A stretch of 64,000 nt of DNA from a virus: IMG/VR virus record IMGVR_UViG_3300016482_000025, positions 1-64,000 of that record. One strand, 5' to 3'. Shown one piece after another: positions 2,822 through 56,093 of the stretch. Made by a program: the position numbers and the translations under genes. Under the pieces are notes generated by a model. The model was given only the letters and a program-made list of their open reading frames with translations. It made no database searches and was not told the origin of the DNA. The stretch's first letter is position 1; the number at the start of each line of letters is the position of its first letter.

Positions 2822-2970
2822 TACTTCCTCTTATAAACGGACATATCCTTGTAATCAACAGAAAAACCTTTATCCTGCCACTCTTCCAGAAAGATAAAAG
2901 CGGCATTTTGATCGTTGAAAGTTTCACGACGAATAAGCTTGCGACCATTGAACACGGAAACTTGGTGCAT
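2821..2970 (-). CDS. hypothetical protein
   Basis: Start moved to ATG 2970 (MHQVSVF) with GGAGA upstream, because promoter 2996-3024 lies inside the longer ORF. Confidence 0.4.
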   Translation of the reverse strand: MHQVSVFNGRKLIRRETFNDQNAAFIFLEEWQDKGFSVDYKDMSVYKRK

Positions 2971-2995
2971 TGTCTTTCTCCGCTCTATGAGAATG

Positions 2996-3024
2996 TTTAT
3001 ACCAGACCAAACAAGTCTTGTCAA
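2996..3024 (-). promoter_or_regulatory. sigma70-type early promoter
   Basis: Minus strand TTGACA, 17 nt, TATAAA. Confidence 0.6.
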
Positions 3025-3026
3025 CA

Positions 3027-3287
3027 CTAATAGTAATACTTATCCTTGAAAACCGCATTCGGGAAAATAGATTGAAGCGCAGTCTTGATATGGGCATCGG
3101 TAATATTCCGGTCCATATCATAAGCCTCTTTCGCAATTCCCGTTTGATGTGCTACAAGCCAAGCATCACTACCAGTCTTCACATCACCCAAAGAAAGCTT
3201 CTGAATAGGCCGCGCAGCAAGCCACGCAGCACACTTGATACGCCAACGGCTAACGGTATCCTTATCAATCTTCGCCATTGTCTTCAT
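3027..3287 (-). CDS. hypothetical protein
   Basis: 86-aa ORF downstream of promoter 3304-3331. Confidence 0.5.
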   Translation of the reverse strand: MKTMAKIDKDTVSRWRIKCAAWLAARPIQKLSLGDVKTGSDAWLVAHQTGIAKEAYDMDRNITDAHIKTALQSIFPNAVFKDKYYY

Positions 3288-9536: not shown

Positions 9537-9717
9537 AATTCTTAAACGAAATGCGCCTGTTTTGTATGATGATTTGATCCGGGGTAATTCTTATGATCGA
9601 ATCTATGCAAAGCACATTAATGAAATGGTCGCTGAGATTGAGGATACTTATCGTCTTGACAGTTGTTATAGTTATGAAATGGTTATTCTGATCAACCATA
9701 TTTTGAAAGGAAAGTAA
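9511..9717 (+). CDS. hypothetical protein
   Basis: 68-aa ORF, packed array. Confidence 0.45.
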   Translation: MSDREQLIEILKRNAPVLYDDLIRGNSYDRIYAKHINEMVAEIEDTYRLDSCYSYEMVILINHILKGK

Positions 9718-9718
9718 A

Positions 9719-9931
9719 ATGCCACAGATTGATATTCCATTTGAAGCTCTTGACGCAATTGTGATTGGTGCACTCAAGGATCATATTGAGTGTCTTGAAA
9801 TTAATCAAAAGACCCTTCAAGATATTATTGATGCTGGTGGTGATCTTGAAGATTATCAGAAGGTTGATTATTATGACAACGCTGATATGATGCGAGCCAT
9901 GAACAAGATTATTGATTATTTTGGTGGTTAG
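9719..9931 (+). CDS. hypothetical protein
   Basis: 70-aa ORF, packed array. Confidence 0.45.
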   Translation: MPQIDIPFEALDAIVIGALKDHIECLEINQKTLQDIIDAGGDLEDYQKVDYYDNADMMRAMNKIIDYFGG

Positions 9932-9932
9932 T

Positions 9933-10292
9933 ATGAAACATAAAGATGAATTCTATTATGTAATGACTGGAATGCATAATGGAATGGTAGCAAAATTTGA
10001 ACCACAAAAAGATGGCTCATATCGCCCACAACATTATATCAAAATCCGTTCTGGTATTTTTTTGAATTGCGAGGGTGGATATGGTATTGATGAAGGTTTT
10101 GTTAAATGGGCGCGTGACAATTTTTATTTGAAGATTGTTCGTGTTCATTATGGATGGAGCAAGGCACGTGTTACCAAGGCCGAATTAACTGATCATGGAC
10201 GTGATTTTATTTTAAAAGAAATGAAGCGACGCAAAGAGACAGAAGGTGAATTGCGCTATTATCCTGCTGGATATCCCCTAGAAAGGCGTTGA
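9933..10292 (+). CDS. hypothetical protein
   Basis: Start moved to ATG 9933 (MKHKDEF). Confidence 0.5.
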   Translation: MKHKDEFYYVMTGMHNGMVAKFEPQKDGSYRPQHYIKIRSGIFLNCEGGYGIDEGFVKWARDNFYLKIVRVHYGWSKARVTKAELTDHGRDFILKEMKRRKETEGELRYYPAGYPLERR

Positions 10293-10317
10293 CAAGCTTT
10301 CGAAATAGCTATATATT
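10289..10317 (+). promoter_or_regulatory. sigma70-type early promoter
   Basis: TTGACA, 17 nt, TATATT. Confidence 0.6.
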
Positions 10318-10340
10318 GGCTTCAAGAAAGGGATAGAGCA

Positions 10341-48335: not shown

Positions 48336-48433
48336 ATAAATATATAGATAACCATTCGGGATAGGGAACGGTGGCTGAATTGGATTTTTGGCTGCATCCA
48401 ATCTATAAATAATACAATTATAGAGGTTTATAG

Positions 48434-49273
48434 ATGAAGACTTTTGCTGATTTTGCCATGCGGAAATTAAACGCAGTCAAATATAAAATACCGGCTGTTG
48501 TTATTACTCATGGCGCACATGCCAATAGACAAGAAATACCTAATTTATACATTCAACATGGCTCCCATTCAGAAGGAAGTCTTAGAGAAGAATATGAAAC
48601 ATTTAGAAGTTTTGAAAGAGGTAAGCACCCTAACCAACATTTAGGTGCAGCTATTTCAGAAGCCGGTATGCATTTGGAAGACCTTCATGCTGACGTGAAA
48701 ATGTCAAACAATGAAATTAGAGCCATTCGTCAATACACAAATACTTCATATGGTTTGAATAGCTCTTTACATCAACACAATGGCGATCTTTCAAGAATTG
48801 CTATTGAACACCAAGACCAAGTAAAATATCTGGATAGTGCAATTAAGAAACATACACTCCCAAAGATGATTTTATTGTCTGGTATTAAAAAAGACCCTAG
48901 AGAACTTACAGAAAATACAAACGGTGTTTTAAAGTCACCAGCTTATGTTTCTACAACAATTCATCCTAGCATCGCTTATTTCTTTGCAAATGATGTGCAC
49001 AGCAAGTATAATGCCGATCCTAAACAACCAGAACAACATATTCTTAAAATCCATGTAAATGAAGGTGAACATGGATTGTATGTTGGGAACAGAAACGTAG
49101 GTTTTAGAAAACTAACCAATTCAACAGAACATGAGGTTCTTCTTCCAAGGGATCATCATTTTAAAATCACAGGAAAAACTACCTATGATGACGCTGGATC
49201 ATTGGTGCATGTCTGGAATACTCATATAATTCCAAGAAAAGAAAATCCTTATACATGGAAGCCAGGAAGATAA
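48434..49273 (+). CDS. Alt-like ADP-ribosyltransferase paralog 1
   Basis: IRQYTNTSYGLNSSL, PAYVSTTI and EHEVLLPR parallel T4 Alt IASYTGSGYRDINDYL, FVSTSL and EAEVILPR; N-terminus MKTFADFAM; IPNLYIQHGSH at aa 35-45. Confidence 0.75.
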   Translation: MKTFADFAMRKLNAVKYKIPAVVITHGAHANRQEIPNLYIQHGSHSEGSLREEYETFRSFERGKHPNQHLGAAISEAGMHLEDLHADVKMSNNEIRAIRQYTNTSYGLNSSLHQHNGDLSRIAIEHQDQVKYLDSAIKKHTLPKMILLSGIKKDPRELTENTNGVLKSPAYVSTTIHPSIAYFFANDVHSKYNADPKQPEQHILKIHVNEGEHGLYVGNRNVGFRKLTNSTEHEVLLPRDHHFKITGKTTYDDAGSLVHVWNTHIIPRKENPYTWKPGR

Positions 49274-49274
49274 A

Positions 49275-50006
49275 ATGTCATTCCTTGATAGATTTAAATC
49301 AACACCAACACCCATTCAATATACAGCAAAGAAACATTATACCAATTTTCTTTATCATAATGCCAATGATCATATTGGTAAAGAAATTTGGGACGTAGAT
49401 AAGAAGCTAAGGGAACATCATCCTTTCGGTCAACTACACGCCAATGAACGTGGTGCGCTTCAATCATACTCAATTGGTTCTTCTGCCTTATCCGATGAAT
49501 TGTTACAAAGCCATAAAGCAAATAGAGAACCAAAACAGAAAGTTGGATATGTGCATCTACCATCCTTGGATAATGCTACAACAAAATTTACTGTTCCTAA
49601 GATGACTGTTTTTTCTGGTGTAAAATTTGATCCGGGTGCCACAACAAAACACTCAAACGGAATCATGTATTCACCATCGTTTATTTCTTCTTCAATTGAT
49701 CCTTCTGTAGCAGATGAATTTGCTGCAACCACAGGTAATGCACACATCATGAGAATACATCTTCATGAAGGACACCCAGGATTATATCTTGGAAATGATC
49801 TAAATAGATCAGCAATGCCTTCCGAGCATGAATTGTTGCTGCCTAGAGGAATTCATTTTAAGATTAATCCAACACCTACTGTGTTTTCACATAATAGTCC
49901 TACAGCTACTAAGCATGTTTGGGATGCTCATGTTATACCAAAGGGTGTAGATATTCACACTTGGCAACCACCAAAAACACCATCCAGAGATTTTACTAAG
50001 GGATAA
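49275..50006 (+). CDS. Alt-like ADP-ribosyltransferase paralog 2
   Basis: LQSYSIGSSALSDEL, PSFISSSI and EHELLLPR; N-terminus MSFLDRFKS; HGSH motif degenerate. Confidence 0.7.
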   Translation: MSFLDRFKSTPTPIQYTAKKHYTNFLYHNANDHIGKEIWDVDKKLREHHPFGQLHANERGALQSYSIGSSALSDELLQSHKANREPKQKVGYVHLPSLDNATTKFTVPKMTVFSGVKFDPGATTKHSNGIMYSPSFISSSIDPSVADEFAATTGNAHIMRIHLHEGHPGLYLGNDLNRSAMPSEHELLLPRGIHFKINPTPTVFSHNSPTATKHVWDAHVIPKGVDIHTWQPPKTPSRDFTKG

Positions 50007-50009
50007 AAA

Positions 50010-52529
50010 ATGAAAAAGTTTAGAGATTTTGTTAGTAAGGTTATTCCAAATCTTTACATTCAACATGGAAGTCATGCATTCCCTAAGAATGACAAAGACC
50101 TTCCAAACGTCTATATTCCCCATGGAAGTCATTCTATACCTCCAAATGACAAAGACCTTCCAAACGTCTATATTCAACATGGAAGTCATGCATTCCCTAA
50201 GAATGACAAAGACCTTCCAAACGTCTATATTCCCCATGGAAGTCATTCTATACCTCCAAAAAAGGTTTCAGAATCAACAGCGGTTGGTGGTATTCACGTA
50301 ACTTTGAAAGAAGAAAAGTTATTTGAATCAATTGCAAACTCTGATGAAATTCATAAAATTCTGGATGGTCATGATAGTTACCAAAAAGAAATTGCATTTT
50401 CAAGCCCACATGTAACACCAGAACATATTCATAAAGCTTTGGATGATGAAAATGAATATGTGCGTGCGTCAGCTATTTCTCACCCAAAAGCAAGTCATGA
50501 AAATATTTCTAAAGCTTTGGATGATGAATCATTCTATATTCGTCGCAGAGCTATTCGTCACGAAAATGTAACACCAGAGCATCTTGATAAAGCAATTCAA
50601 AGGGATAATCCAGAAGACCTTAGAGAAGTAGCTATGAGTCCAAAGGTGCAATCTCACCATCTTGATAAATTATTAGATCATCCAGAAACTTATGTGTCTT
50701 CAAGAGCAGCATCAAGCCCAAACATTCAACCACATCACATTGACAAAATTCTAGATGGAAACAACCATTCCGCTAAAAATTCTGTTCTTCTAAGTGATAA
50801 GCTAACAACAAATCATATTCATAAAATTCTTGATGGTGATGATACAGACGCCAAATCTAGAGTATTGATGAATCCAAATGTCAAAACAGAACATATTGAC
50901 AAAGCCATTAATGATCCTTCTTCTCATGTAAGAAAAAGAGCTATTGTTTCTCCTGCCGCACAATCACACCACATTGACAAAGCATTAAAAGATGAAGATT
51001 GGGGTGTAAGAACAGCAGCATTACAAAGTGATCATCTTCAATCACATCACATTGATGAAATTTTAAGTAATAAATTAAATAGTGTATCTAACTCATCAAA
51101 TGCAATGAGCGTTCTACACCATCCGAATGTTCAACCACATCATTTGGATATGGCATTAAACCATGATGATTGGAGAGTAAGAAGAGAAGTATTTTCTTAT
51201 TACAAAACACCAGTTACACCAGACCATATTACAAAGGGATTGGATGATACACGTCCAGAAGTTAGAGCAGCGGCAGCAGGACACTCAGCGGCAACAGACG
51301 CCCATCTTGACAAAGCTCTAGATGATGGTAATGAACATGTTGTTCATGCAGCAACATCAAATCCAAATCTAAAACCACATCATCTTGATAAAGCAGTTAT
51401 GTCAAGTTATGGTTCTGGTTTAGATCATCTTTCAAATAATAATAATCTTCAACCACATCATATTGATCATATTCTACAACATGGTTCATATGATGCAAAG
51501 TATAATGCTCTACAACATAAAAACTTTACATCAGAACATATCACAAAAGCTTTCAATAATCCAGAAACAGGTAGTGGAACACTTGGAGATATTTTGTCTT
51601 GGCATAAAGACAAAATTACACCAGAACACGTTACAACATTATTGAATCATCCTAATGCTGATAGTTGGGCAAAAGAAAAGGCTCTTTCTTCAAGAGGCGC
51701 AACAAGTGATCATATTCATCAAATATTAGATGATCCAAACGCACACGATTTACACGCCCACGTTGTAAATTACAGTGATAAGTTTGGGAAAGAACATCTT
51801 GACAAAGTTATGAATGGTAACTATAAAGATTGGGTTAAAGAATCTGCAAATAAGAAAGTATTCTTTATGCATGATAACACCCATTTAGGTGATTCTGTTG
51901 GTGATGTTGGAAAACATCTTCAAGAAAGACAAGAAACACATGGGAAAATTCCAATCAGTAAAATTCCAGATGAACACAAATATGCAATTAAAAATTACAC
52001 AGATGGTTCATATGGAATCAATAGTCATTTGATTCATGACGGTCATGATGAAGAAGCTGTAAAGAATGGTCCATATGCAAACCAAGTTAAAAACATGGAT
52101 GCTGCCATTGATTCACACCCTCTACCAAAAATGACTGTGTATTCAGGTATTAAGTTTCATCCACATCAAAAAACAACACCAGATGGTTTATTAAAAACAA
52201 CAGCATATATTTCAACATCAATCAATCCTCAAACATCACATGGATTTACAAGTGATGTATCTCATGGTGGTGAACGTGCAAAACACATTCTTAGAATTCA
52301 CGTTCCAGAAGGACACCCAGGATTCTTTACCGGTAATGACAATGAATTTACAAACCATAATGAACATGAAGTAATTCTTCCAAGAAACACTCGATATAAA
52401 ATTTCTGATGCACCATCAAAATCTTATGCAGATGGATATGGAGATAAAATTCATATGTGGGATACACACATTGTTCCACAACATGTAGAAAATTCTCATG
52501 AATGGGAACCACCAAAGGTTGAGAAATAA
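50010..52529 (+). CDS. Alt-like ADP-ribosyltransferase paralog 3 with four HGSH motifs and a helical-repeat central domain
   Basis: 839 aa; MKKFRDFVSKV then 4 x PN(L/V)YI(Q/P)HGSH; about 19 repeats of about 26 aa; C-terminal IKNYTDGSYGINSHL, AYISTSI and EHEVILPR (52362-52385). Confidence 0.75.
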   Translation: MKKFRDFVSKVIPNLYIQHGSHAFPKNDKDLPNVYIPHGSHSIPPNDKDLPNVYIQHGSHAFPKNDKDLPNVYIPHGSHSIPPKKVSESTAVGGIHVTLKEEKLFESIANSDEIHKILDGHDSYQKEIAFSSPHVTPEHIHKALDDENEYVRASAISHPKASHENISKALDDESFYIRRRAIRHENVTPEHLDKAIQRDNPEDLREVAMSPKVQSHHLDKLLDHPETYVSSRAASSPNIQPHHIDKILDGNNHSAKNSVLLSDKLTTNHIHKILDGDDTDAKSRVLMNPNVKTEHIDKAINDPSSHVRKRAIVSPAAQSHHIDKALKDEDWGVRTAALQSDHLQSHHIDEILSNKLNSVSNSSNAMSVLHHPNVQPHHLDMALNHDDWRVRREVFSYYKTPVTPDHITKGLDDTRPEVRAAAAGHSAATDAHLDKALDDGNEHVVHAATSNPNLKPHHLDKAVMSSYGSGLDHLSNNNNLQPHHIDHILQHGSYDAKYNALQHKNFTSEHITKAFNNPETGSGTLGDILSWHKDKITPEHVTTLLNHPNADSWAKEKALSSRGATSDHIHQILDDPNAHDLHAHVVNYSDKFGKEHLDKVMNGNYKDWVKESANKKVFFMHDNTHLGDSVGDVGKHLQERQETHGKIPISKIPDEHKYAIKNYTDGSYGINSHLIHDGHDEEAVKNGPYANQVKNMDAAIDSHPLPKMTVYSGIKFHPHQKTTPDGLLKTTAYISTSINPQTSHGFTSDVSHGGERAKHILRIHVPEGHPGFFTGNDNEFTNHNEHEVILPRNTRYKISDAPSKSYADGYGDKIHMWDTHIVPQHVENSHEWEPPKVEK
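50061..50262 (+). repeat. 114-bp in-frame tandem direct repeat (about 1.8 copies, exact)
   Basis: Sequence from 50061 recurs identically from 50175; each unit encodes two 19-aa sub-repeats. Confidence 0.9.
50341..51830 (+). repeat. about 19 degenerate coding repeats (about 26-33 aa) of LRV/HEAT-like helical type
   Basis: Recurring xPxVxxEH(I/L)(D/H)KALDDxxxxVRxxAxxxP; counted from 19 H(I/L)xK(A/I)L cores. Confidence 0.7.
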
Positions 52530-53386
52530 TGAAAAGTTTTAAATCATATCTTAAAGCCATGCCTTGGGTTATACCAAATTTGTATATCCAGCATGGCTCA
52601 CACGCCTTCACAGAGGAAGATAAGCAAGAGACGCAAGCGGTTCAAGGGGTATCACAAGTTACCACAGAAGCCTTAAAACCAAAAGTATATAACTTAAATC
52701 ATGATTATTACATGATTAATCATAATTCACATCTTGGTCCTACCATTGATGATGTTGGTAATCATCTTCATGCTTTGCAAGATCAAAAAGAATCAATTCA
52801 TGATATGCCAGAACATGAAAAAAAGGCTGTATTGTCATACGCAGAAAGCTCAAAGGATATTAACAAAGCTTTAATTCATCATGAAGATTTTAATAAAGCA
52901 CATGAAGAAGTAAAACAACATATAAACCTTGAACATTTTGATAGTGCTGTAAATAAACATACTCTACCAAAGATGGTTCTTCATTCTGGTGTTGGTTGGA
53001 ATCCAAGAAAAGAATCAGCAATGTCCAATGGTGTTTTTAGAACATCAGCATATACTTCATCTTCAATTGATTCAGGAACAGCAGACTTTTTTGCTAAAGC
53101 CCATTGGGATCATAAGCTTGGTGATTTTGAAAGACATGTTCTGAGAATTCATGTGCCGGAAGGTCATAAAGGATTGTTTGTTGGAAATGAATATAACGGC
53201 AGCCCATTAACTCATATGGCAGAACATGAGGTTATTCTTCCTCGTAATACAACCTATAAACTAGCTCGTAGCACACCTTCTGCGACTTACTATAAGAGTG
53301 GTGATAGCGTTGCTACACATGTTTGGGATGCTCATATTGTTCCACATGAGGAAGACCCCCATACATGGACACCCCCTAAAAAGTAA
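52529..53386 (+). CDS. Alt-like ADP-ribosyltransferase paralog 4
   Basis: VLSYAESSKDINKAL, SAYTSSSI and EHEVILPR; N-terminus MKSFKSYLKAM; IPNLYIQHGSH at aa 15-25. Confidence 0.75.
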   Translation: MKSFKSYLKAMPWVIPNLYIQHGSHAFTEEDKQETQAVQGVSQVTTEALKPKVYNLNHDYYMINHNSHLGPTIDDVGNHLHALQDQKESIHDMPEHEKKAVLSYAESSKDINKALIHHEDFNKAHEEVKQHINLEHFDSAVNKHTLPKMVLHSGVGWNPRKESAMSNGVFRTSAYTSSSIDSGTADFFAKAHWDHKLGDFERHVLRIHVPEGHKGLFVGNEYNGSPLTHMAEHEVILPRNTTYKLARSTPSATYYKSGDSVATHVWDAHIVPHEEDPHTWTPPKK

Positions 53387-53405
53387 AAGGCCCATTCGGG
53401 CCTTT
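53386..53405. terminator. bidirectional terminator hairpin between convergent genes
   Basis: AAAGGCCC-ATTC-GGGCCTTT. Confidence 0.6.
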
Positions 53406-53721
53406 ACCTTGGTTGATAATTCTGATAATAGAAATGTAAAGCCCAGAATCTACAATATAATTCATGTAAATCCTTATCTTTTACAGTTTCCTTGAAATTT
53501 GAATAATCAATATTATCAATTGATTCAGACATTATATTCTTAAATTCTTCCTTGGAGCAGTATGTTCTATACATGTAATCCGCATTCCAAAGCTCTGTAA
53601 TTTCTCGGTCTGGAAACAACCGTTGAAGAATTTCTTTGCGACGTGCCCGAACAACAAGCTCATTAAAATTCAACTTATCCTTAACTACAGAAATAAAACC
53701 ATCACTCAAACACACCCACAT
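53404..53721 (-). CDS. hypothetical protein
   Basis: 105-aa ORF. Confidence 0.5.
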   Translation of the reverse strand: MWVCLSDGFISVVKDKLNFNELVVRARRKEILQRLFPDREITELWNADYMYRTYCSKEEFKNIMSESIDNIDYSNFKETVKDKDLHELYCRFWALHFYYQNYQPR

Positions 53722-53722
53722 A

Positions 53723-54424
53723 TTATTCTCCTAATAATTTATTCCTTCTCTCTGAGAAATTCTTAAATAATTCTTCATGATTAGAAAGGCCACTGTTTTT
53801 AAATAATCCTTGAACATGATTCATATCCATGTTCCTTACTGCTTCAAGACCATGTTTTTCAGCACCGGGATTTTGTTGAAACACAGTTTTAAATACATGA
53901 GTAGAAGCATTTTCTGGTCTAGAAATTAACGAATGTTTTTCATCAATATCAGGACCATAATCCTTATGTCCACCTTGGGCACGAAAATGGAAAGCACCAC
54001 CAGAGTCAACAGAGTGTAATTCACCTGTCTCTTTATGGCGCTCAATGTTATCATGTTCCAAACCAACAATATCCCAATTCTTGGTTAGAATAGCTGCATG
54101 ATACATTTTACCAATCGTATGTTGTTGATCAGTATTCAAATGAGCAAAATCAGAAGGATGCATTCTTTCTAATTTGTCATTCCAAGGTGTAACAACAGAA
54201 TGCTTACCATTTACCACAGAATAAGACGGTTGTAAAGTCTTAATTCCCATGTGTTCGTGAATTTTTCCTGTTAAATCTTCAACCTTGGCTTGATCAGCAT
54301 TTTGGTAATGTTTAACATAAAACTTTTTACCTGATTCACTGTCAACATGAACGCCGCCCGGATTAGAACCTAGACGGTCGCCCATTTTTTGTAATTCTTC
54401 TTGTAATTGTTTAAATGATTTCAT
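53723..54424 (-). CDS. atypical kinase-like protein with capsid-targeting-like N-terminus
   Basis: MKSFKQLQEEL; LGSNPGGVHVDSESGKKFYVKHY (Gly-rich loop plus Lys); TKNWDIVGLEHDNI (catalytic-loop-like D..N); SVDSGGAF (DFG-like). Confidence 0.45.
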   Translation of the reverse strand: MKSFKQLQEELQKMGDRLGSNPGGVHVDSESGKKFYVKHYQNADQAKVEDLTGKIHEHMGIKTLQPSYSVVNGKHSVVTPWNDKLERMHPSDFAHLNTDQQHTIGKMYHAAILTKNWDIVGLEHDNIERHKETGELHSVDSGGAFHFRAQGGHKDYGPDIDEKHSLISRPENASTHVFKTVFQQNPGAEKHGLEAVRNMDMNHVQGLFKNSGLSNHEELFKNFSERRNKLLGE

Positions 54425-54445
54425 GAGACACCTTTTTTATTGTAT

Positions 54446-55018
54446 TTATGGCGCCTCTGCTACTTCAACCATATCGCTTGGGTTTCTATAGAAACGATGA
54501 TTTCCAATTACAACCGTTCTTGTAAAATTCCTAAAATCCCTAGGAACGGTTCTACCTGAATGGAAGTAGCGACTTCTATCAGTCACGTCCAACAGGATTT
54601 CACGGTCATACAAGGCGATCCAAGCAAGGACTAGGCTTCTATCCCAAACCTCACCAGAAGGCATCCTATGGCGCCTGGAAGTCCACGAAAACTGTCCTGG
54701 CCTGAATACCTCACGGCAGATGTTTTGCCTGTCTTGTGCGCGATTCATTGTTACATTAACAACGGCGATTTGTCCTAACATACGTTCGCCTCGCGCTTCA
54801 TGGTAGATGTTTTGTGCCAAACACACAAGGTTCCTTTCGTTAAAGGCGTTTCTAGGTAGAATGGCAATATGAGCATTAACTAGATGCTCCATAAATCTTT
54901 CGTAGTTAGATTCTGTCTCCCATGGATGAAAAGTATTCGCTACCGCTTGAGACGTAGGCACTACCAATGTTAGAAACGCCATCGTCAGTAGCAGAGCTAC
55001 CTTCTTTAGCTTCTTCAT
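54446..55018 (-). CDS. SleB-like cell wall hydrolase with signal peptide
   Basis: MKKLKKVALLLTMAFLTLVVPTSQA; LAQNIYHEARGE...GQIAVVNVTMNR...PGQFSW. Confidence 0.7.
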   Translation of the reverse strand: MKKLKKVALLLTMAFLTLVVPTSQAVANTFHPWETESNYERFMEHLVNAHIAILPRNAFNERNLVCLAQNIYHEARGERMLGQIAVVNVTMNRAQDRQNICREVFRPGQFSWTSRRHRMPSGEVWDRSLVLAWIALYDREILLDVTDRSRYFHSGRTVPRDFRNFTRTVVIGNHRFYRNPSDMVEVAEAP

Positions 55019-55241
55019 TTTTGTTTTCCAATACGTTGTTTAAATATCGTTGAAGATACCAAATAGCCTTCTCGATATCTTCCTTGGGTGTATCATGCTT
55101 CTTATCAGCACGCAAGATATATTTCAGAACATTTCCTAGATGGAACCCAAGTTGATAATGTTCAATGATATTTATAACCTCATAAACACCTGGGTTATAG
55201 TGTTCCGGGTGGTTTACTTTTTCTTCTTTTCCTGTAGCCAT
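54906..55241 (-). CDS. DUF3310-family protein
   Basis: VNHPEHYNPG..YEVINIIEHY...GNVLKYILRA...AIWYLQRYL. Confidence 0.65.
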   Translation of the reverse strand: MATGKEEKVNHPEHYNPGVYEVINIIEHYQLGFHLGNVLKYILRADKKHDTPKEDIEKAIWYLQRYLNNVLENKNEEAKEGSSATDDGVSNIGSAYVSSGSEYFSSMGDRI

Positions 55242-55594
55242 TGTTCTAATCCTGTAAAGTCAATATTTTTAATCACATCTGCAATATGGTTGTCAATTAA
55301 TTGTCTTGTTAGTGCAATCTTTTCTGGCACTTCCATATGGTCATAATTATGAAACTTTATAAATGTTCGTGGGTCTTTCATTTCCACTACGATAGCAGAT
55401 TCAAATGTTGAAGGACTATCATAGAAAGAAACTCTTCTTTTTCCTTCAAACACTGGTCCGAAGATTTTCCAAGTCTTGGCTTTTTCTTCCTCATACTTTG
55501 TTTTTAATTCATCACACTTAAAACGCAATGCGCGAATTTCATCTTGCATTGCTTCATAGGAATCTAATGATAAAGATACTGTTCCGTCAGCCAT
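55214..55594 (-). CDS. hypothetical protein
   Basis: 126-aa ORF. Confidence 0.5.
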   Translation of the reverse strand: MADGTVSLSLDSYEAMQDEIRALRFKCDELKTKYEEEKAKTWKIFGPVFEGKRRVSFYDSPSTFESAIVVEMKDPRTFIKFHNYDHMEVPEKIALTRQLIDNHIADVIKNIDFTGLEQWLQEKKKK

Positions 55595-56093
55595 TTGTAA
55601 CTCTCTTCAATTTGCGTTCAATATTCTTCCAATCTTTAAGAGCCTTGTTTCTATTAAAGAAATTAGCATCGTCCCAAAAATAGGTTCCGTTGATGTGTGT
55701 CATTTCGTGTTGAAATAAGCGAGCGGTTCCACCTTCAAGATTTGCAGTTTGGACAGCGCCGGTTATATCATTATATCGCACACGAATCTTGAATGGGCGC
55801 GTAATCTTAACAGAAAGACCGGGAAATGAGATATCTGTTTCTGTGCCCAAAGCCATTTCTGATGACTCATAAACAATCTTCGGATTGAGATATACTGAAT
55901 AAGATTCCCAATTTCGAATAATAAACATAGCAGCATCATAACCAAGCTGGTTAGATGAGAGGCTAACCGCATCATAACGCTTTGCTACTTCAACCATTTC
56001 TGTAGCAACAGCGGCAGCAAGAGCCAAGTCTGTTACCTTTTCTAAGGGTGTTTCTAGATAAGGGGATTTACCCACAATAACTTTTGGTTCCAT
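55587..56093 (-). CDS. peptide deformylase-like protein (divergent)
   Basis: QHEMTHINGTYF retains HExxH; VSLSSNQ aligns to the GIGLAAxQ motif; ETDIS aligns to EGCLS with Cys replaced by Asp. Confidence 0.55.
   Translation of the reverse strand: MEPKVIVGKSPYLETPLEKVTDLALAAAVATEMVEVAKRYDAVSLSSNQLGYDAAMFIIRNWESYSVYLNPKIVYESSEMALGTETDISFPGLSVKITRPFKIRVRYNDITGAVQTANLEGGTARLFQHEMTHINGTYFWDDANFFNRNKALKDWKNIERKLKRVTNG

Follow-up and report, generated by a model that had tools for sequence, protein, structure and literature searches.

An uncatalogued family of HipA/CtkA-like kinases as candidate virion-delivered phage effectors with a conserved partner gene

Proteins that enter the host together with phage DNA are active ahead of all phage gene expression and thereby decide the first minute of an infection. 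To our knowledge the ADP-ribosyltransferase (ART) Alt is the only enzyme delivered in this way by T4. A locus of an uncultured T4-like myovirus (IMG/VR record IMGVR_UViG_3300016482_000025) raises the question whether a kinase can take the same route. The DNA analysed here comprises positions 1 to 64,000 of that record (37% G+C; in the following called the window). An open reading frame (ORF) at 53723–54424 on the minus strand lies next to four ART genes and encodes a kinase-like protein of 233 amino acids (aa), which an initial annotation made from the letters alone had taken for a packaged effector. We consider it on balance probable that the gene product is an injected HipA/CtkA-like kinase, which would be made late, targeted to the capsid, processed by a protease and directed against a host target at infection alongside Alt-like ARTs. 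If a kinase is indeed carried by the same signal as the ARTs, protein phosphorylation would be added to the injected toolkit. What appears to be new is an uncatalogued kinase family that would serve as a virion-delivered effector, accompanied by a new conserved partner gene.

Fold and active site of the kinase-like protein

The gene forms an ORF from ATG to TAA in which all motifs quoted in the initial annotation are present; the strand, which had not been given, is the minus strand. The protein consists of a leader (aa 1–10), a short linker and a protein-kinase-like domain (aa ~14–233). Searches with the single sequence and with a profile gave no match in Pfam (E≤10), PHROGs, NCBIfam or the PDB sequences. 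The only PADLOC match, to C3a216 (17 bits, aa 9–45, no significant stretch), was dismissed. An identical protein is recorded on a 162-kb contig. A word-indexed search retrieved 216 homologs; the 120 listed are 224–298 aa long and 54–87% identical to the window protein. Conservation was determined in an alignment of 40 close homologs (53–87% identity), which was also used to build an AlphaFold2 model, and in a divergent set of 47 multidomain relatives.

The candidate ATP phosphate-binding loop is the Gly-rich stretch G19-S-N-P-G-G24 (54353–54370), in which G19, N21, G23 and G24 are invariant among the 40 homologs. In the model it is placed between strands 11–13 and 23–28, at the N-terminal end of the latter. 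The nearly invariant S20 is a possible autophosphorylation site. The next segment (54278–54313) contains the strand with the predicted ATP-binding lysine, K38 of YVK within FYVKHY (54311–54313), and the start of an alpha-C-like helix with E49; Y36, K38, Q45 and E49 are invariant. The catalytic loop T114-KNWDIVGLEHDN126 (TKNWDIVGLEHDN, 54047–54085) belongs to a region in which L113–D118 (including N116 and W117), G121, H124 and N126 do not vary; we propose D118 as catalytic base and N126 as metal ligand. The equivalent of the Mg-binding DFG motif is D140-S-G-G143 (DSGG, 53996–54007), with D140, G142 and G143 invariant and two short strands preceding it as in kinases. R148 and K154 complete the set of invariant residues. 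In the 47 divergent relatives G19, K38, E49, D118, G121, D140, G142 and K154 are still invariant, N126 is nearly so (≥90%), and G23 and G24 are kept at least to this degree. Since the kinase residues are invariant in the 40 homologs and mostly also in the divergent relatives, the motifs are, judged by sequence conservation, not a product of chance. The residues picked in the initial annotation as Gly-rich loop with lysine, catalytic-loop-like and DFG-like motifs proved to be the invariant ones.

The AlphaFold2 model is confident (pLDDT 91.1, pTM 0.88), with disorder only at residues 1–8 (pLDDT <50). Its elements follow the canonical order: a Gly-loop hairpin, the Lys strand, a long Glu-bearing helix, a sheet of three strands, a helix that ends at the catalytic loop, a pair of short strands, D-x-G-G and a helical C-lobe (aa 162–232). 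The C-lobe reaches block-mean pLDDT values of 91–99 and is conserved in the 40-sequence alignment. A Foldseek search of the model, a check that had been suggested with the initial annotation, found 84 structures in the PDB at E≤1e-3; of the 50 that were listed, almost every one is a protein or small-molecule kinase. CtkA of H. pylori ranks first (3akl/3akk, E 2e-7 to 9e-6, TMq 0.57–0.61), followed by Legionella HipT/Lpg2370 (7wcf, 8ezs, 8ezr, 7vkb, 7vkc). Sugar and aminoglycoside kinases as well as CK1/TTBK rank lower among the 50 (TMq ~0.35–0.44). The protein had been likened to three types of atypical kinase, HipA, PI3/4-kinase and actin-fragmin kinase. Since the best folds are CtkA and HipT and neither of the other two types occurs among the 50 PDB matches, HipA is the right one of these comparisons. 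In addition, the Pfam model PI3_PI4_kinase gave no match, and a single phage protein with this annotation was found among the top 50 in BFVD (TM 0.66). The best viral fold matches in BFVD, with TM 0.69–0.81, are segments of phage proteins annotated as portal or ART.

By manual comparison of motifs, K38, D118, N126 and D140 would be equivalent to K181, D309, N314 and D332 of HipA. The relationship is a distant one. The loop reads NWDxxGxxHDN here and DxHxxN in HipA, and it is three residues longer. A Hip-type activation loop was not identified in the protein, in which the Gly-rich loop, the D...N loop and D-x-G-G are present and invariant. Alignment of a 266-sequence domain alignment with E. 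coli HipA by hhalign was non-significant (E 0.056); it paired K38 with K181 and misaligned the C-lobe. The 40-sequence alignment gave no hhalign match to E. coli HipA. While the window protein itself does not match the Pfam HipA models, these models do match divergent copies of the domain. P0135, a protein of 3416 aa, carries an ART domain and five tandem kinase-like copies (109–270, 691–852, 1891–2052, 2416–2576, 2969–3130). Its Pfam scores, which are summed and cover N-lobe parts only, are 67.5 bits for HipA_C, 64.7 for APH and 45.7 for HipA_2, with the best stretches on copies 1, 3 and 5. P0202 has a borderline HipA_2 score of 26.5 bits (cut-off 27), likewise on N-lobe parts, at 614–694 of its domain copy at 608–835. 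These matches would form a weak but direct sequence bridge from the family to the HipA/APH kinases.

The similarity to the Hip kinases thus lies in the protein-kinase-like fold, for which HipT/Lpg2370 is among the best structural matches. With HipT and HipG/M/I/J the protein further shares a Ser-bearing Gly-rich loop near the N-terminus and a small gene immediately downstream (PMC8262856). It differs from them in its genomic setting: it does not belong to a chromosomal toxin-antitoxin operon, and the domain occurs with a capsid leader or embedded in virion proteins. CtkA (JHP0940) is a stand-alone, cell-translocating Ser/Thr kinase that is exported into another cell. Although it is the closest structure, identity over the alignment is only 14–15% without a sequence-level match, and organism and delivery route differ. 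We conclude that the protein is closest to the HipA/HipT/CtkA branch and yet forms a family of its own, which is absent from the curated libraries searched. The kinase fold is almost certain and an active phosphotransferase very likely; for a protein as the substrate we see an even chance.

Leader and routes of the domain into the virion

In T4, a leader of ten residues is sufficient for incorporation into the head. Its residues 4 and 7 hold the targeting information, residues 8 and 10 direct processing, and the prohead protease gp21 cleaves after L/I-x-E (reviewed in PMC9026906). The internal proteins IPII and IPIII both start with MKTYQEFIAE and Alt starts with MELITELFDE. The window kinase starts with MKSFKQLQEE (54395–54424), which resembles the IPII/IPIII leader. 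With F4, L7 and the predicted protease site L7-Q8-E9 it has what characterizes T4-type leaders, namely positions 4 and 7 and an L/I-x-E site.

This is a property of the family. The pattern stands at the very start in 92 of the 120 listed homologs, and in most of the others it begins a few residues further in. Over these 92 sequences the positions read M; K/L/I/R; S/T (63); F (82); K/R; Q/E; F/Y (79); L/I/V/F (75); x; and E (81). The resulting logo M-K-[ST]-F-x-x-[FY]-[LIVF]-x-E matches T4 MKTYQEFIAE position by position, including the L/I-x-E site; the homolog on contig L004, for example, starts with MKSFLTFIAE. Among the real genes of the window, a start of the type MK[STK]F..[FYL] is found only in the kinase ORF and in the ART genes beginning at 48434 (MKTFADF), 50010 (MKKFRDF) and 52529 (MKSFKSY). 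The fourth ART gene, at 49275, has a version shifted by one residue (MSFLDRF), so that the leader said earlier to be common to kinase and ARTs is indeed present in all four neighbours. This count leaves out gp46 (MIVFKTI) and some unannotated ORFs of both strands, which were matched by a looser pattern. On other contigs, ARTs adjoining the kinase carry the leader as well (MRTFKQYLNALE in L005, KRFKDFIKG in L004), and in L010 six genes have a leader-type start, five of them scored as ARTs and the sixth being a short ORF.

The kinase thus resembles the T4 internal proteins IPI, IPII and IPIII and Alt in its leader of ~10 aa with aromatic residues at 4 and 7 and L/I-x-E at 8–10, in the adjoining Alt-like ART genes and in the predicted gp21-type processing (PMC9026906). 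It differs in its cargo, a kinase, and in that packaging is a prediction. The findings further point to a conservation of the T4 capsid targeting sequence well outside the T-even phages; if so, repertoires of internal proteins would become predictable from metagenomes. We know of no kinase among the T4 internal proteins.

A profile search of 1.84 billion representatives gave 4457 clusters (50% identity) at E≤1e-3 and 2948 at E≤1e-10. The family is therefore large; it occurs in phages of proteobacteria and actinobacteria and is missing from Pfam, PHROGs and NCBIfam. The best 149 members retrieved include 93 of more than 400 aa, almost all of which carry the domain internally. In such fusion proteins the profile match begins at position ~14 and the leader is absent, which means that it is not part of the kinase domain. 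According to fusion boundaries and model, the leader is a separate, disordered module. In P0122, an ART-kinase fusion, a relic internal leader (VRTFKESLQE) lies between both domains and would allow a protease to separate them.

The fusion partners were determined by a Pfam scan of the 47 multidomain members, in which counts of the families may overlap. ADPrib_exo_Tox was found in 19, DRAT in 15, Phage_Mu_F in 11, NUDIX in 8, Phage_portal_3 in 4 and ART in 3 members, while ART-PolyVal and LPD38 occur once each. In a collection of cultured phages the domain was matched at 26–32% identity in two settings. The first is the interior of giant proteins of ~90-kb phages, annotated as ART in Yersinia fHe-Yen8-01, Pseudomonas Jeremy and Dolphis and Aeromonas ST4, and as hypothetical in Pseudomonas Touem01, Escherichia ECML-606-1, Enterobacter phiT5282EW and Morganella Mecenats66. 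The second is a 734-aa protein of Gordonia Forza-like phages, encoded directly after the portal gene. The giant protein of fHe-Yen8-01, gp129, carries the record note 'phage particle associated protein'. In the literature library searched we found no publication on the kinase family, on a packaged kinase in T4-like phages or on fHe-Yen8-01. A group of giant kinase-domain proteins (P0167, P0183, P0186, P0189, P0198, P0203, P0218, P0230, P0250) has a common N-terminus, M(V/A)K(V/I)(A/S)WK(V/T)(I/V)(N/K)G(Y/N/H)GPY(A/G)Y(L/V)Q, which may be a separate virion-anchoring module.

The domain is accordingly found on three routes to the virion: behind a T4-type leader, fused to portal or MuF proteins, and inserted into giant polyvalent proteins. 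We regard this convergence as the strongest argument for an action in the newly infected cell, one that reaches the phage studied here by analogy. By comparison with T4, packaging of the kinase via its leader is quite probable. Because the leader mimics the head-loading signal of T4, the kinase would probably be injected together with the ADP-ribosylating enzymes. The earlier idea of a packaged effector thus finds comparative support in the leader match, the portal and MuF fusions and the annotation of gp129, which falls short of proof.

A kinase-superfamily domain in large, virion-delivered multidomain phage proteins has been described before, with the prediction that host proteins are its substrates at an early stage of infection (Iyer et al. 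2017, PMC5512222). That domain has lost its whole C-terminal subdomain and occurs mainly in (pro)phages of Verrucomicrobia, Chlamydia and Bacteroidetes (PMC5512222). The window domain, in contrast, keeps the helical C-lobe at aa 162–232 and occurs in T4-like phages, ~90-kb enterobacterial, Pseudomonas and Aeromonas phages and actinophages. Since the domain of Iyer et al. has no C-lobe, the two are probably different families; they are set apart here by description. The NUDIX-linked 'InPase' domain of the same authors has an OB fold and is unrelated. The kinase gp0.7 of phage T7 is an unpackaged protein, expressed early once the genome has been injected. It is absent from the top 50 viral fold matches of our model. 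As a Ser/Thr kinase used for host takeover it has been cited as a precedent (PMC5512222). By analogy, the window protein looks like a cross between the T4 internal proteins and Alt in its delivery and HipA/CtkA in its chemistry.

Partner gene and NUDIX linkage

Three features of the locus go beyond the initial annotation, namely a conserved partner gene, a linkage to NUDIX proteins and the orientation of the kinase gene on the strand opposite to the ARTs. The partner gene (53404–53721, minus strand) encodes 105 aa without a leader and starts one nucleotide past the kinase stop codon (TAA-T-ATG). It adjoins the kinase in six independent metagenomic contexts, the window and contigs L004, L005, L008, L010 and L011, while what lies further upstream varies by contig: it can be a cell-wall hydrolase gene, the gene of a DPBB protein or of ThyX, or small ORFs that follow an RNase H gene. 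The order is kinase, partner and a convergent ART in the window, L004 and L005; in L011 a NUDIX gene is placed between kinase and partner, again followed by a convergent ART. L010 has a kinase-NUDIX fusion, then the partner, and five divergent ART genes. On the 213-kb phage-like contig L008 there are two partner copies divergent from a 720-aa kinase-domain protein without detectable ART. These two copies are arranged in tandem and have diverged from each other (9561–9944 and 10001–10318).

In the cultured-phage collection the partner is confined to nine phages, each of which also has the kinase domain. T4 and thousands of cultured T4-like phages with Alt in the same collection have neither kinase nor partner. 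The partner therefore tracks the kinase and not ARTs in general. In the two examined, Jeremy and fHe-Yen8-01, a 160-aa protein and a NUDIX protein are encoded between the giant protein and the partner, which lies 2–3 genes downstream. Within gp129–134 of fHe-Yen8-01 the partner is the sole gene without a particle-associated annotation (gp129–131 and gp133–134 have it, the NUDIX protein included). Since no partner was found in the DNA examined at two kinase-domain loci, the portal-fusion contig L009 and Gordonia Mareelih, the linkage is frequent and not universal.

A profile search retrieved 874 homologs of the partner, and all 120 listed are stand-alone proteins of 96–166 aa. New here is thus a conserved, always stand-alone gene of ~100 aa that accompanies the kinase in unrelated phage lineages. 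Invariant residues are W2, F9, S11, R25, R27, R28, F36, P37, D48, Y49, R52, Y73, N75, K77, W93 and Q100, suggesting a defined binding or catalytic site. The AlphaFold2 model of the partner is moderate (pLDDT 73). No helix-turn-helix and no Pfam family above cut-off were found in it. A HipS/HipA-N-like nature was also tested, and no similarity to HipS or the HipA N-domain was seen; the partner is in this respect unlike the usual antitoxin adjacent to Hip kinases, being neither DNA-binding-like nor HipS-like. Weak matches to the Hsp33 C-terminus, with 16.7 bits in Pfam (cut-off 21.4) and 21.7 in NCBIfam (cut-off 244), were dismissed. One tentative reading, less probable than not, sees the partner as a regulator or antidote that is not packaged and acts on the kinase within the producing cell.

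NUDIX hydrolases are encoded between kinase and partner or fused to the kinase in several unrelated phages, as seen in L011 (10720–11358), L010 (10001–11212), L002 (6224–7072) and L001 (6197–7015), and P0144 is another kinase-NUDIX fusion. The strict Nudix-box pattern does not occur in the 64-kb window. Directly upstream of the kinase-NUDIX fusion in L010, which lacks a leader, a tRNA-like 3' end is found at 9940–9990 (GGTTCGAGTCCCCCCTTGGGCACCA); this fusion may have lost its leader through rearrangement.

Proposed action, competing readings and gene surroundings

In the mechanism we propose, the kinase gene would be transcribed late together with the partner gene. The ten-residue leader would act as a T4-type capsid targeting sequence and bring the kinase into the prohead core, where a gp21-type prohead protease would cut it off at L7-Q8-E9. 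Together with the DNA and the Alt-like ARTs, the mature kinase of ~25 kDa would remain in the head, and after ejection into the next host it would phosphorylate a host target in an ATP-dependent manner before phage gene expression. K38 and E49 would hold ATP, D118 would serve as the base and N126 and D140 would bind Mg; a Ser/Thr site in a protein would be the most likely target. The leaderless partner, made together with the kinase, would remain in the producing cell and restrain or regulate the kinase there. For this phage we infer activity, packaging and cleavage of the kinase, the nature of its substrate and the role of its partner.

Expression signals were found at suggestive positions. 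At 54443–54450 on the minus strand, 18 nt ahead of the kinase ATG, there is a T4-type late-promoter-like CATAAATA, which overlaps the stop codon of the preceding cell-wall hydrolase gene; a Shine-Dalgarno-like AAGGTG comes after it. The coding strand upstream of the kinase (GCGCCATAAATACAATAAAAAAGGTGTCTCATG) provides a good ribosome-binding site. The consensus T4 late-promoter motif TATAAATA (48404–48411, plus strand) is found 22 nt upstream of the first ART gene.

Several observations weigh against our proposal. The window protein itself has no sequence match to any kinase model, and TM-scores against solved kinases are only ~0.6. Its leader (MKSFKQL-QE-E) is one residue shorter than the family consensus. 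P0121, the close relative fused to NUDIX in L010, and the stand-alone NUDIX of L011 have no leader, so that the enzyme set can evidently work even in the absence of this signal. No enrichment of TATAAATA was seen in the window, with 6 occurrences against 6.8 expected from shuffles, and because of this frequency the promoter motifs are consistent with late expression and do not prove it. The partner model has no PDB fold match (best E 0.17), and only gene organisation suggests the antidote role, which is a guess. Finally, the recurrent linkage to NUDIX and ARTs could indicate a nucleotide-type substrate instead of a protein.

The last point leads to the alternative that survives best, which we nevertheless hold to be unlikely: a small-molecule or nucleotide kinase acting in one pathway with NUDIX and ARTs, which might still be virion-delivered. 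Its substrates would be NAD+/ADP-ribose-derived or other nucleotides, for example host immune signals or ADP-ribosylated products. The recurrence of the order kinase-(NUDIX)-partner in L011, the fusions in L010 and P0144 and the arrangement in the ~90-kb cultured phages speak for it, as do the NUDIX domains of the multidomain relatives, among which ART-type families are the commonest fusion partners. NahK and APH(2'') are among the fold matches and Pfam APH matches one domain copy. Moreover, the F-R-A-x-G-x-x-K stretch after DxGG, with R148 and K154 invariant, is highly conserved across phages of unrelated hosts, which would fit a universal small ligand. The closest structures, however, are by a clear margin in TMq (0.57–0.61 against 0.38–0.44) the protein kinases CtkA and HipT, and the modules of the window, L004 and L005 have no NUDIX. 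ART is in any case the commonest domain of polyvalent virion proteins (PMC5512222, PMC9503650), and for this reason fusion to ARTs may reflect co-delivery only.

A wider version of our own proposal, which we regard as rather doubtful, would join kinase, partner, NUDIX and ARTs in one conserved virion-delivered system, with the partner as a non-packaged antidote or timer and the kinase in the ADP-ribosylation pathway. Lineages would load the enzymes differently, by T4-type leader, portal/MuF fusion or giant polyvalent proteins. The partner would silence the kinase in the producing cell, a toxin-immunity logic applied to an injected effector, and the kinase might act, for example, on a host target that is conserved universally or on a molecule derived from ADP-ribose.

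It is quite improbable that the protein is an ordinary intracellular phage enzyme that is not packaged and whose resemblance to the T4 signal is coincidental, the N-terminus acting as translation initiation context, degron or binding helix. Such an enzyme would agree with the leaderless P0121, with stand-alone members known from genes alone, with the weak late-promoter support and with a location among replication and nucleotide-metabolism genes (gp46/47, peptide deformylase, ThyX, ribonucleotide reductase) and not among head genes. The T4 genes ipII, ipIII and alt are likewise outside the head gene cluster, however, and the match to the T4 signal is position-specific, exactly at the residues important by mutagenesis. 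The leader is also restricted in the window to five effector-type genes, and other phages fuse the same domain to portal or MuF proteins.

Kinase-fold proteins with non-kinase chemistries exist, such as SelO and SidJ, and pseudokinases typically lose some of the canonical residues, while SelO-type enzymes have no catalytic Asp. A pseudokinase, an enzyme for AMPylation or glutamylation, or a binding or inhibitory internal protein would fit the unusual loop NWDxxGxxHDN, with 7 residues from D118 to N126 against 4 in HipA/PI4K-type loops, but is very improbable given the full canonical set (Gly-loop, Lys, Glu, Asp, Asn and Mg-binding Asp) under strong purifying selection in thousands of clusters.

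The injected kinase that we propose would share its locus with four tandem ART genes on the plus strand (48434–49273, 49275–50006, 50010–52529 and 52529–53386), convergent with the kinase operon. They match Pfam ADPrib_exo_Tox with E 2e-17 to 5e-11 and are Alt-like in PHROGs. All four carry the motif (I)PN(L/V)YI(Q/P)HGSH(A/S) after the leader, and ORF 50010–52529 has four tandem copies of it at aa 12–75 (about 50040–50235). Related ART motifs are PxYVHGKHA in L005, NPxLIKQGKHSV in L004 and PVHG(K/S)HS in six tandem genes of L010, five of which scored as ARTs; T4 Alt has PITNLYP at aa 14–20. The motif may be a second signal for the head core or for DNA binding. The product of ORF 50010–52529, an ART of 839 aa, contains HEAT-like repeats of the type H-hydrophobic-x-K-A-L/I-D-D at ~aa 100–600, between leader and C-terminal ART domain, which match Pfam HEAT and HEAT_2.

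Between the convergent ART and partner genes a GC-rich hairpin, AAAGGCCC-loop-GGGCCTTT (53386–53405), was reported by the terminator scan for the minus strand only. It is likely the intrinsic terminator of the kinase-partner operon, and its palindromic stem may also act on the convergent ART transcript.

Downstream on the minus strand, the window encodes homologs of gp46 and gp47 as well as of gp55, the late sigma factor. The window gp46 is only 42–43% identical to gp46 of the Synechococcus, Caulobacter Cr30, Sinorhizobium phiM12 and Stenotrophomonas DLP6 phages. A peptide deformylase gene (55587–56093, minus strand; Pfam Pep_deformylase, E 1e-27) is located between gp46 and the effector cluster. 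The cell-wall hydrolase ORF (54446–55241, minus strand; Pfam Hydrolase_2) has a signal-peptide-like N-terminus and, as listed, overlaps an upstream DUF3310 ORF by 113 nt. Inside this DUF3310 ORF a further TATAAATA motif is found at 55169–55176 on the minus strand.

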